Notes under the pieces: generated by a model | The model's database searches: none | Told to the model about the DNA's origin: nothing | The model's input: only the letters and a program-made list of their open reading frames with translations | Virus record (IMG/VR): IMGVR_UViG_3300028584_001241 | From: a virus | Reading direction: 5' to 3' (one strand) | Length of the DNA: 64,000 nt | Position numbers and translations under genes: made by a program | Part shown: positions 45,620 through 46,210 of the stretch, piece after piece | Layout: every line of letters begins with the position of its first letter | How positions within the stretch are numbered: position 1 is the first letter of the stretch

Positions 45620-45908
45620 AAAAAAAAAGAGAGTCTTTCGACTCTCTTATCATTCCTTTGGTTTCTTACATCCATTAAAACAAATTAACGCTCCGTGTAC
45701 ATAAACTAGAACATATTCCATCTATCATTCTAATTTTTCTTCCTTTTCCTTGTAACAGTCCTTTATAGAGTGAGTCCTTAACTTATCATCCTGATAATTG
45801 CTGCATCCTTAAATCACTATTCCTTTTTTTATTGTCGTCCATTACACTTGCCAGCCCACACTCAAAATCATTTCTTATGCAGTTATTCTTATTGTTTCCT
45901 TGCTGACA
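45620..45908 (-). ncRNA. CsrB/RsmY/RsmZ-like CsrA(RsmA)-sequestering sRNA
   Basis: 13 GGA motifs on the minus strand (12 ANGGA), none on plus; TTGACA..TAGTAT promoter; terminator AGAGAGTC-GAAA-GACTCTCT + U-run. Confidence 0.8.
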
Positions 45909-46192
45909 ATTACATACTAACAGGAAATTTTTTACTGTCAACTAAATTTTATAGCATTTTGCAAGATTTTTTCTTGACGCCATTAAAAAAACGCTATTTT
46001 TGATGCTTTTTACAAAAGCATATTTAAATACTATACTTAATAAAAAGTTGTTTTATATAGTGTTTTTTATGTATGTTATTTATTTATGGTTAAACGATAA
46101 ATAAATCAAGTTTTTTGCAATGTCTAAATGCTCATTTAGGGTGTTTTGCAAGATGGCATATTATCATCATAGGCGTAAATCGCCACATCCTG

Positions 46193-46210
46193 CATAAGAC
46201 AAAGCTTACA
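46193..46210 (-). promoter_or_regulatory. GacA/UvrY-box-like upstream activating sequence
   Basis: Minus strand TGTAAG-CTTTGT-CTTATG vs consensus TGTAAG-N6-CTTACA, about 290 nt upstream of the sRNA. Confidence 0.55.

Follow-up and report, generated by a model that had tools for sequence, protein, structure and literature searches.

Does the gene-free DNA upstream of a gene for a 210-residue protein encode an RNA that titrates CsrA/RsmA, and is that RNA wired to a GacA-type regulator? Both had been proposed in a preliminary description made from the letters of the sequence. Overall, we believe that the locus carries a conserved small-RNA gene whose product is most likely a sponge for CsrA/RsmA, with a GacA-type site upstream, and we put the probability of this reading at roughly 60%. 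The window, here and below, is the whole 64-kb stretch of DNA that was analysed.

A predicted independent transcription unit

The unit and its two flanking signals, all on the minus strand, are the following.

45620 to 45912, minus strand, read from 45912 to 45620: predicted 293-nt non-coding RNA with 13 GGA sites, 12 of them ANGGA
45914 to 45941, minus strand: sigma-70-type promoter, with -35 box TTGACA at 45941-45936, a 16-bp spacer and extended -10 TG-n-TAGTAT at 45919-45914
45620 to 45648, minus strand: strong intrinsic terminator, with a 9-bp stem (45648-45627), a GAAA loop and a U9 tail

The 5' end of the RNA was inferred from the -10 box, and the U run of the terminator was taken as its 3' end. 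An ORF-free minus-strand unit between a TTGACA/TAGTAT promoter and a strong terminator is what the preliminary description had seen, and this part of it is borne out in full. A scan for promoters and terminators recovered both signals, the core promoter (TTGACA at 45941-45936) being near-consensus and the terminator at 45648-45627 being the sole terminator-like site of the region; the longest ATG ORF in the unit runs to 23 codons, and no reading frame is conserved in the orthologues.

Orthologues and the limits of conservation

Starting from the neighbouring 210-residue gene, we reached a single IMG/VR record, the 181-kb G001, which bears the label provirus, as well as two metagenome contigs, Ga0308158_10000001 (L011; 1,859,102 bp), which is identical to G001 over the ~1 kb compared across the locus, and Ga0247725_1000001 (L012; 1,539,155 bp). 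The 210-residue protein is 91% identical in the former contig and 67% identical in the latter, and the window is collinear with G001 along its full length at 65-92% nucleotide identity. In both contigs an orthologue of the RNA occupies the same place as in the window.

L011, 2644-2959: RNA orthologue of 316 nt with 15 GGA
L012, 2682-2957: RNA orthologue of 276 nt with 13 GGA

Among these three sequences, which come from two lineages and on which all of our comparative claims rest, the promoter is kept throughout, and the terminator is the same save for one base of one pair, which is U-A in L012 and U-G in the other two. Measured against L012, the RNA is 72% identical at the nucleotide level and the 60 bp upstream of its start are 80% identical, compared with 68% for the downstream coding sequence, 63% for the divergent coding sequence and ~60% for the rest of the intergenic DNA. 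Conservation sets in sharply at the -35 box and stops just past the terminator. Because a promoter and a terminator are both present, no ORF is conserved and conservation begins at the promoter, the segment 45912-45620 is, as predicted from sequence, a self-contained and independent non-coding transcription unit.

The same signals bear on an alternative in which the unit would control the downstream nucleotidyltransferase gene (44946-45578) in cis, as its leader or attenuator. The unit does share the orientation of that gene, and its terminator ends 40 nt ahead of the start codon; against this, the terminator is separated from the gene by a conserved extended -10 (TGGTATACT / TGGTATTAT), the distant homologues of the gene (L002-L005, 30-38% identity) are found without an adjacent GGA-rich stretch, and no alternative anti-terminator structure stands out beside what is a strong terminator. 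The gene's own extended -10 and the homologues that lack an upstream GGA-rich RNA led us to reject a leader or attenuator, which we hold to be very unlikely.

Further copies were sought in several collections. Scans of IMG/VR with blocks of the RNA and with the 18-bp upstream box returned one orthologous record and otherwise chance matches; contigs of GTDB genomes matched neither a 22-nt block shared by the three RNAs nor the Pnkp-like protein encoded nearby; and no entry of the phage and plasmid collections matched the region by blastn. An nhmmer search of the window, G001, G002, L002 and L005 with a profile built from the three sequences matched only the three aligned copies and revealed no paralogue.

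An array of GGA sites

The hallmark of the RNA is its repeated GGA motif. All 13 positions at which the preliminary description had placed a GGA (TCC on the plus strand) are exact, and 12 of the 13 sites are ANGGA. Its further remark that the opposite strand lacks GGA holds for the transcribed part, but one GGA is present in the promoter spacer. When GGA is counted in 300-nt sliding stretches across the 64-kb window, the 13 found here compare with a mean of ~2 and a next-best value of 8 on either strand. When the RNA is shuffled with its dinucleotide content preserved, 7.1 +/- 1.8 GGA are obtained, and 13 are reached in 2 of 5000 cases; ANGGA averages 2.8 and never reaches 12 in 5000. Across all three RNAs, which carry 13-15 sites in 276-316 nt, the observed count was reached by 2-12 of 5000 shuffles for GGA and by none of 5000 for ANGGA. 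The RNA shares with members of the Csr/Rsm class the possession of many GGA and A-N-GGA motifs, well above background.

The sites are also spaced and retained in a way that invites comparison with this class. In the new RNA and its orthologues GGA occurs once per 21-22 nt with a median spacing of 16-17 nt, a value inside the 10-63 nt that a single CsrA dimer can span between two sites (PMC7652899). One site fits both CAGGA(U/C/A)G and the SELEX core (PMC7652899); most of the others are AAGGA or AUGGA and lie in single-stranded runs. All 13 GGA sites are retained in L011 and 12 of 13 in L012, and the GGA columns are more conserved than the other columns of the RNA (100% vs 88% in L011; 79% vs 63% in L012). 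L011 carries in addition a 27-nt insertion that adds two units, including a second copy of a hairpin, AUCAGGACGAU, and judged by sequence such modular gain and loss is what would be expected of a repeat-based sponge.

A purine-rich RNA with AAGGA motifs resembling a Shine-Dalgarno core might also act by base-pairing, or as a decoy for the ribosomal anti-Shine-Dalgarno sequence, the GGA repeats being Shine-Dalgarno look-alikes. We compared the repeats with local practice by examining the 22 nt before each of the 74 ORFs of the window: a G follows GGA in 20 of 41 gene-upstream cases, giving the local form AGGAG, as against 1 of the 13 sites in the RNA. On this difference in next-base frequency we rejected the repeats as Shine-Dalgarno mimics. 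We know of no precedent for ribosome decoy by an RNA of this kind, and we regard a base-pairing or decoy role as quite improbable.

Predicted structure and accessibility of the sites

Three structural elements can be placed on the minus strand of the RNA gene.

45783 to 45797, minus strand: canonical hairpin of CsrA type, UUAUCA-GGA-UGAUAA, with CAGGAUG in the loop, kept in all three genomes
45848 to 45909, minus strand: 5' stem-loop of the consensus fold (RNA positions 4-65), with compensatory changes
45883 to 45893, minus strand: (AAN)4 tract AAUAAGAAUAA (RNA positions 20-30), seen in the alignment of the three genomes

The small hairpin had been noticed in the preliminary description as TTATCA-GGA-TGATAA, and it is predicted in every fold. 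In the 5' stem-loop three base pairs are altered on both sides with pairing retained, and there are several one-sided G-U/A-U changes; the first GGA and the (AAN)4 tract sit in its open part. The consensus fold further predicts a long-range helix in which UGUAAUGG pairs with CUGUUACA around the central GGA array, a hairpin with GAUGGAAU in its loop, and the terminator.

How accessible are the sites? Across the three RNAs the predicted probability of being unpaired is 0.59-0.71 at GGA vs 0.45-0.49 overall. The GGA sites are thus more accessible than the average position, but only 2-3 of them, including that of the conserved CAGGAUG loop, lie in hairpin loops of the minimum-energy fold, vs 9 in CsrB. 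As in RNAs of the Csr/Rsm class, the modelled GGA sites are found in hairpin loops or single-stranded, a resemblance weaker than that of CsrB. The fold as a whole is not more stable than those of shuffled sequences (z = -1.3), and this weak predicted stability fits an RNA whose display of sites is mainly single-stranded.

The weak z-score would also be in keeping with there being no functional RNA at all, the stretch being a purine-rich spacer in which sites resembling a promoter and a terminator occur by chance. Such a spacer would not be expected to show the sharp conservation boundary at the promoter, the retention of GGA sites, the compensation in paired positions, or a level of conservation as good as or better than that of the adjacent coding genes, and we consider it extremely unlikely.

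The (AAN)4 tract merits separate attention. It varies only at its N positions, reading AAU-AAG-AAU, AAC-AAU-AAU and AAG-AAC-AAU-AAU among the three genomes, and by its sequence it resembles the motif recognized by the distal face of Hfq, which it may bind. One could suppose that the RNA is a sponge or scaffold for Hfq, as CrcZ is, or for an unknown protein encoded by the replicon, with the upstream palindrome bound by a regulator other than GacA. In addition to a conserved tract that differs at its N positions alone and an A-R-N run, AGGAAAAGGAAGAAAAAU, such a proposal could draw on csrA and gacA not having been found nearby and on neighbouring proteins that are mostly orphans. Weighing on the other side are the 13 conserved GGA sites, next to which the AAN tract stands single, the lack of a sigma-54 promoter of the crcZ kind, and the combination of the ANGGA motif with an exact GacA consensus, both of which are specific to the Csr/Rsm circuit. 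A sponge for Hfq or another protein seems to us unlikely, and titration of CsrA/RsmA remains our preferred reading.

A candidate upstream control region

Upstream of the promoter, four short elements stand out.

46193 to 46210, palindromic, no strand assigned: GacA/UvrY-box-like sequence TGTAAG-CTTTGT-CTTATG, degenerate in the window and perfect, as TGTAAGCTTCCTCTTACA, in both orthologues
46144 to 46150, minus strand: first conserved TGCAAAA block, at -238 from the RNA start (TGCAGAA in L011)
46113 to 46119, minus strand: second conserved TGCAAAA block, at -207, in all three genomes
45957 to 45963, minus strand: third conserved block, TGC(A/G)AAA, at -51/-50, just upstream of the -35 box

The box TGTAAG-N6-CTTATG lies at 46210-46193, just where the preliminary description had put it. 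Taken by itself the copy in the window is at chance level, since it has two mismatches to TGTAAG-N6-CTTACA and 4 such sites are found in 64 kb where 3.9 are expected; its significance comes only through the orthologues. In both L011 and L012 the site is a perfect TGTAAG-N6-CTTACA, the sole perfect site in the 181-kb record, and TGTAAGCTTCCTCTTACA forms an island of identity amid diverged DNA. From the base composition of the window we estimate the chance of a perfect site within 500 bp at ~6 in 100,000. The orthologous palindrome agrees at 16 of 18 positions with the upstream activating sequence of P. fluorescens rsmY, TGTAAGCATTCTCTTACA (PMC4353343). The GacA-type palindrome is thus perfect and locked in position in both orthologues, and the copy in the window, taken alone, does not rise above chance.

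The distances are informative. Measured from the predicted start of the RNA, the palindrome has its centre at 289.5, 290.5 and 288.5 bp in the three genomes, and its distance to the divergent 93-codon gene ranges from 232.5 to 246.5 bp, a variation of 14 bp. The three TGC(A/G)AAA blocks likewise keep fixed distances to the RNA start while the DNA between them has diverged. Since palindrome and blocks are both position-locked to the RNA start, we tie the upstream architecture to the promoter of the RNA and not to the neighbouring gene. From their sequence and placement, the blocks are possible sites for a second regulator or for a DNA-bending protein.

Two features of this arrangement are unusual. 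Typical activator-dependent rsm promoters are not near-consensus; that of the new RNA is, and its dependence on an activator is consequently not obvious. The palindrome, moreover, at -290, lies farther upstream than known sites, the inverted repeat of csrB being at -183 (PMC4682653).

The carrier replicon and its genes

A sponge acts on a protein, and we searched the surrounding DNA for the partners. No csrA was found in the window, in the 181-kb G001 record or in L012, whether with Pfam PF02599 on the records or by tblastn with E. coli CsrA. A UvrY-like gene was likewise absent from the window, the 181-kb G001 record and L012, and no GerE-type domain was found in the 181-kb record.

The RNA was also compared with the Rfam families to which it had been likened. 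No Csr/Rsm match (CsrB, CsrC, RsmX, RsmY or PrrB_RsmZ) appeared at E values up to 10 for the region or up to 5 for L011 and L012. Permissive thresholds gave only noise in the region and both orthologues, and at the gathering score the whole window yielded two tRNAs and nothing else. As there is no Rfam match, we place the RNA in a new sequence family and not among the sequence members of CsrB, CsrC or RsmX/Y/Z; its features point to a functional kind that is already known.

What kind of replicon carries it? The local region is classed as viral by one database. Only 3 of the 74 ORFs of the window match a complete related phage of 222 kb, G002. Pfam models for terminase, HK97 capsid and ABC ATPase found no match in G001, nor in the genuine phage G002, and are uninformative on this point. 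Most window proteins have no Pfam family.

Several genes of the window give clues to its lineage. A ClpA-like ATPase (20149-22449, plus strand) belongs to a clade of ~37 metagenome-only clusters that are 63-99% identical and occur on contigs of up to 1.04 Mb; its identity to any named bacterium does not exceed 45%, and it is a useful marker of the replicon lineage. At 41832-44183 (minus strand) a 783-residue protein fuses a P-loop kinase, a calcineurin-like phosphatase and a T4-type RNA ligase in the manner of Pnkp RNA repair, and its closest annotated relatives, at ~30%, come from SPbeta-like Bacillus phages, large Staphylococcus phages and Fusobacterium. With ClpA no more than 45% identical to named bacteria, and with Pnkp relatives, ~30% identical, in Firmicute phages and plasmids, a gammaproteobacterial setting is unsupported.

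Other features of the DNA are recorded here as observations. The downstream 210-residue protein (44946-45578, minus strand), whose gene has its own conserved extended -10 promoter, shows a G-S ... D-x-D nucleotidyltransferase signature; it has no Pfam match at E 0.001, and its nearest language-model clusters belong to NTP_transf_2/Polbeta/RlaP families and are 63-100% viral. The segment 48536-51793, ~3.2 kb missing at the collinear site of G001, holds an IS607-like serine-recombinase gene that includes a MerR-type HTH (48735-49331), overlapped by a 661-codon ORF without a Pfam family (49328-51313), and it looks, from this comparison, like a recent insertion in the window genome. A protein with a type IVb pilin PilS-like domain (PF08805; 22593-23441, plus strand) and a Sir2-family protein (6977-7786, minus strand) are also encoded, the latter being one of the three ORFs shared with phage G002. 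Between two tRNA-Leu genes ARAGORN places a tRNA-like gene with a four-base anticodon, agcg (63589-63672, plus strand), which the Rfam tRNA model does not report at its gathering score; collinear with these window-end genes is a cluster of 12 tRNA genes in 1.9 kb (L018:17617-19500; 77.6-79.5 kb in G001).

Weighing the evidence and a proposed mechanism

In favour of a CsrA/RsmA sponge we count the enrichment of GGA and ANGGA, the retention of GGA, the compensatory pairs and the locked palindrome. Against it we count csrA and gacA not having been found in the window, G001 or L012, the absence of Rfam matches, the small number of GGA in loops and the weak fold z-score, together with the near-consensus promoter, the degenerate box of the window, its position at -290 and the ~240 bp that separate it from the divergent gene. 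What stands of the original proposal is a conserved non-coding GGA-repeat RNA with the architecture of the Csr/Rsm class in its site density, spacing, accessibility and CAGGAUG hairpin; that CsrA binds it, that a regulator of the GacA family binds the palindrome, and where both proteins are encoded is what we infer.

The general pathway can nonetheless be sketched. Consider a cell that harbours this replicon. From the strong sigma-70 promoter a terminated RNA of about 290 nt would be made, which would present 13 A-N-GGA sites at intervals of ~16-17 nt, mostly in single-stranded stretches and in part in hairpin loops. As a CsrA/RsmA dimer bridges two sites, one RNA could hold roughly six dimers, and their capture would relieve the control of target mRNAs by CsrA. 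Transcription would probably be modulated from a distal enhancer-like region composed of the 18-bp GacA/UvrY-type palindrome and the three TGCAAAA blocks, with CsrA and the GacA-type regulator presumably encoded elsewhere on the replicon or in the host cell.

What such a circuit would be for depends on its carrier. The preliminary description had suggested that an element might use it to shift lifestyle control or to de-repress genes of its own. One possibility, which we advance tentatively, is a carrier akin to a phage or plasmid, AT-rich and of giant size (1.5-1.9 Mb), that lacks csrA and gacA and whose Gac-controlled sponge seizes the global post-transcriptional switch of the host; the carrier might otherwise be the chromosome of a deep-branching uncultured bacterium. 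If it is accessory or viral, mobile DNA would tap a master regulator of the host by RNA rather than by protein; if it is a chromosome, the circuit of Gac box and sponge RNA would extend outside the Gammaproteobacteria. Regardless of the carrier, a two-part design of GGA-repeat RNA and exact GacA palindrome appears here as a new sequence family, in the setting of very large AT-rich replicons, a widespread lineage seen in metagenomes only, whose proteins are mostly orphans, and the RNA offers a handle by which the host or lineage might be identified through its cognate CsrA and GacA.

Comparison with known systems

CsrA sponge RNAs and their control by GacA/UvrY have been described for chromosomes of Gammaproteobacteria (PMC7652899), and CsrB and CsrC of E. 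coli are among the closest known systems. These are long sponges too (369 and 245 nt, vs 276-316 nt here), with many GGA at 14-17 nt spacing, the CAGGAUG hairpin, an intrinsic terminator and an 18-bp TGT-AG-N6-CTTACA palindrome far upstream of the promoter. Run as a control through the same script, with its sequence taken from the annotated K-12 record, CsrB gives figures comparable to those of the new RNA: its 369 nt contain 22 GGA, one per 16.8 nt as against one per 21-22 nt here, the median spacing is 14 nt as against 16-17 nt, and its UvrY palindrome is recovered at -182, as published (PMC4682653). The probability of being unpaired in CsrB is 0.80 at GGA vs 0.44. There are differences as well. 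No similarity exists in sequence or by covariance model; the GC content is 33% in the AT-rich new RNA and 51% in CsrB/CsrC; the sites of the new RNA are mostly AAGGA or AUGGA in single-stranded runs and not CAGGAUG loops; the box lies at -290 and not at -183 as in csrB, before a promoter that is near-consensus; and, unlike in the E. coli circuit, csrA and uvrY were not found near the RNA in the DNA examined.

With RsmY, RsmZ and RsmX of Pseudomonas the new RNA has in common sites of the A-N-GGA type, and its orthologues share with RsmY the palindrome (TGTAAGCTTCCTCTTACA vs TGTAAGCATTCTCTTACA, 16 of 18). It is two to three times longer than these RNAs, has no Rfam match to them and, whereas theirs is a pseudomonad setting, is carried by DNA that can be assigned to no pseudomonad or other gammaproteobacterium.

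A different point of comparison is provided by CrcZ and CrcY, the sponges of Pseudomonas Hfq/Crc. CrcZ works through several A-rich motifs and depends on a sigma-54/CbrB promoter. Like CrcZ and CrcY, the new RNA would titrate a protein by means of short repeated motifs, and it does contain an AAnAAnAAnAA tract. Its conserved repeat is GGA, however; it has one AAN tract in place of several AAnAAnAA motifs, and a sigma-70-type promoter (TTGACA / TG-n-TAGTAT) in place of a sigma-54/CbrB promoter.

Finally, there is precedent for mobile DNA that interferes with the Csr/Rsm network of its host: the plasmid regulator RsmQ of pQBR103 (PMC9928087), and the csrA alleles on PLSDB plasmids and phages and CsrT of Legionella ICEs (PMC7366521). 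A non-exhaustive search of the literature found no report of a Csr sponge RNA borne by a phage or plasmid. Those elements carry a protein, whereas here it is an antagonist RNA that would be carried, with no csrA found nearby. If the accessory-replicon reading is true, the RNA described here would be the first Csr/Rsm antagonist RNA on a mobile or accessory replicon, and the mirror image of plasmid-borne RsmQ.
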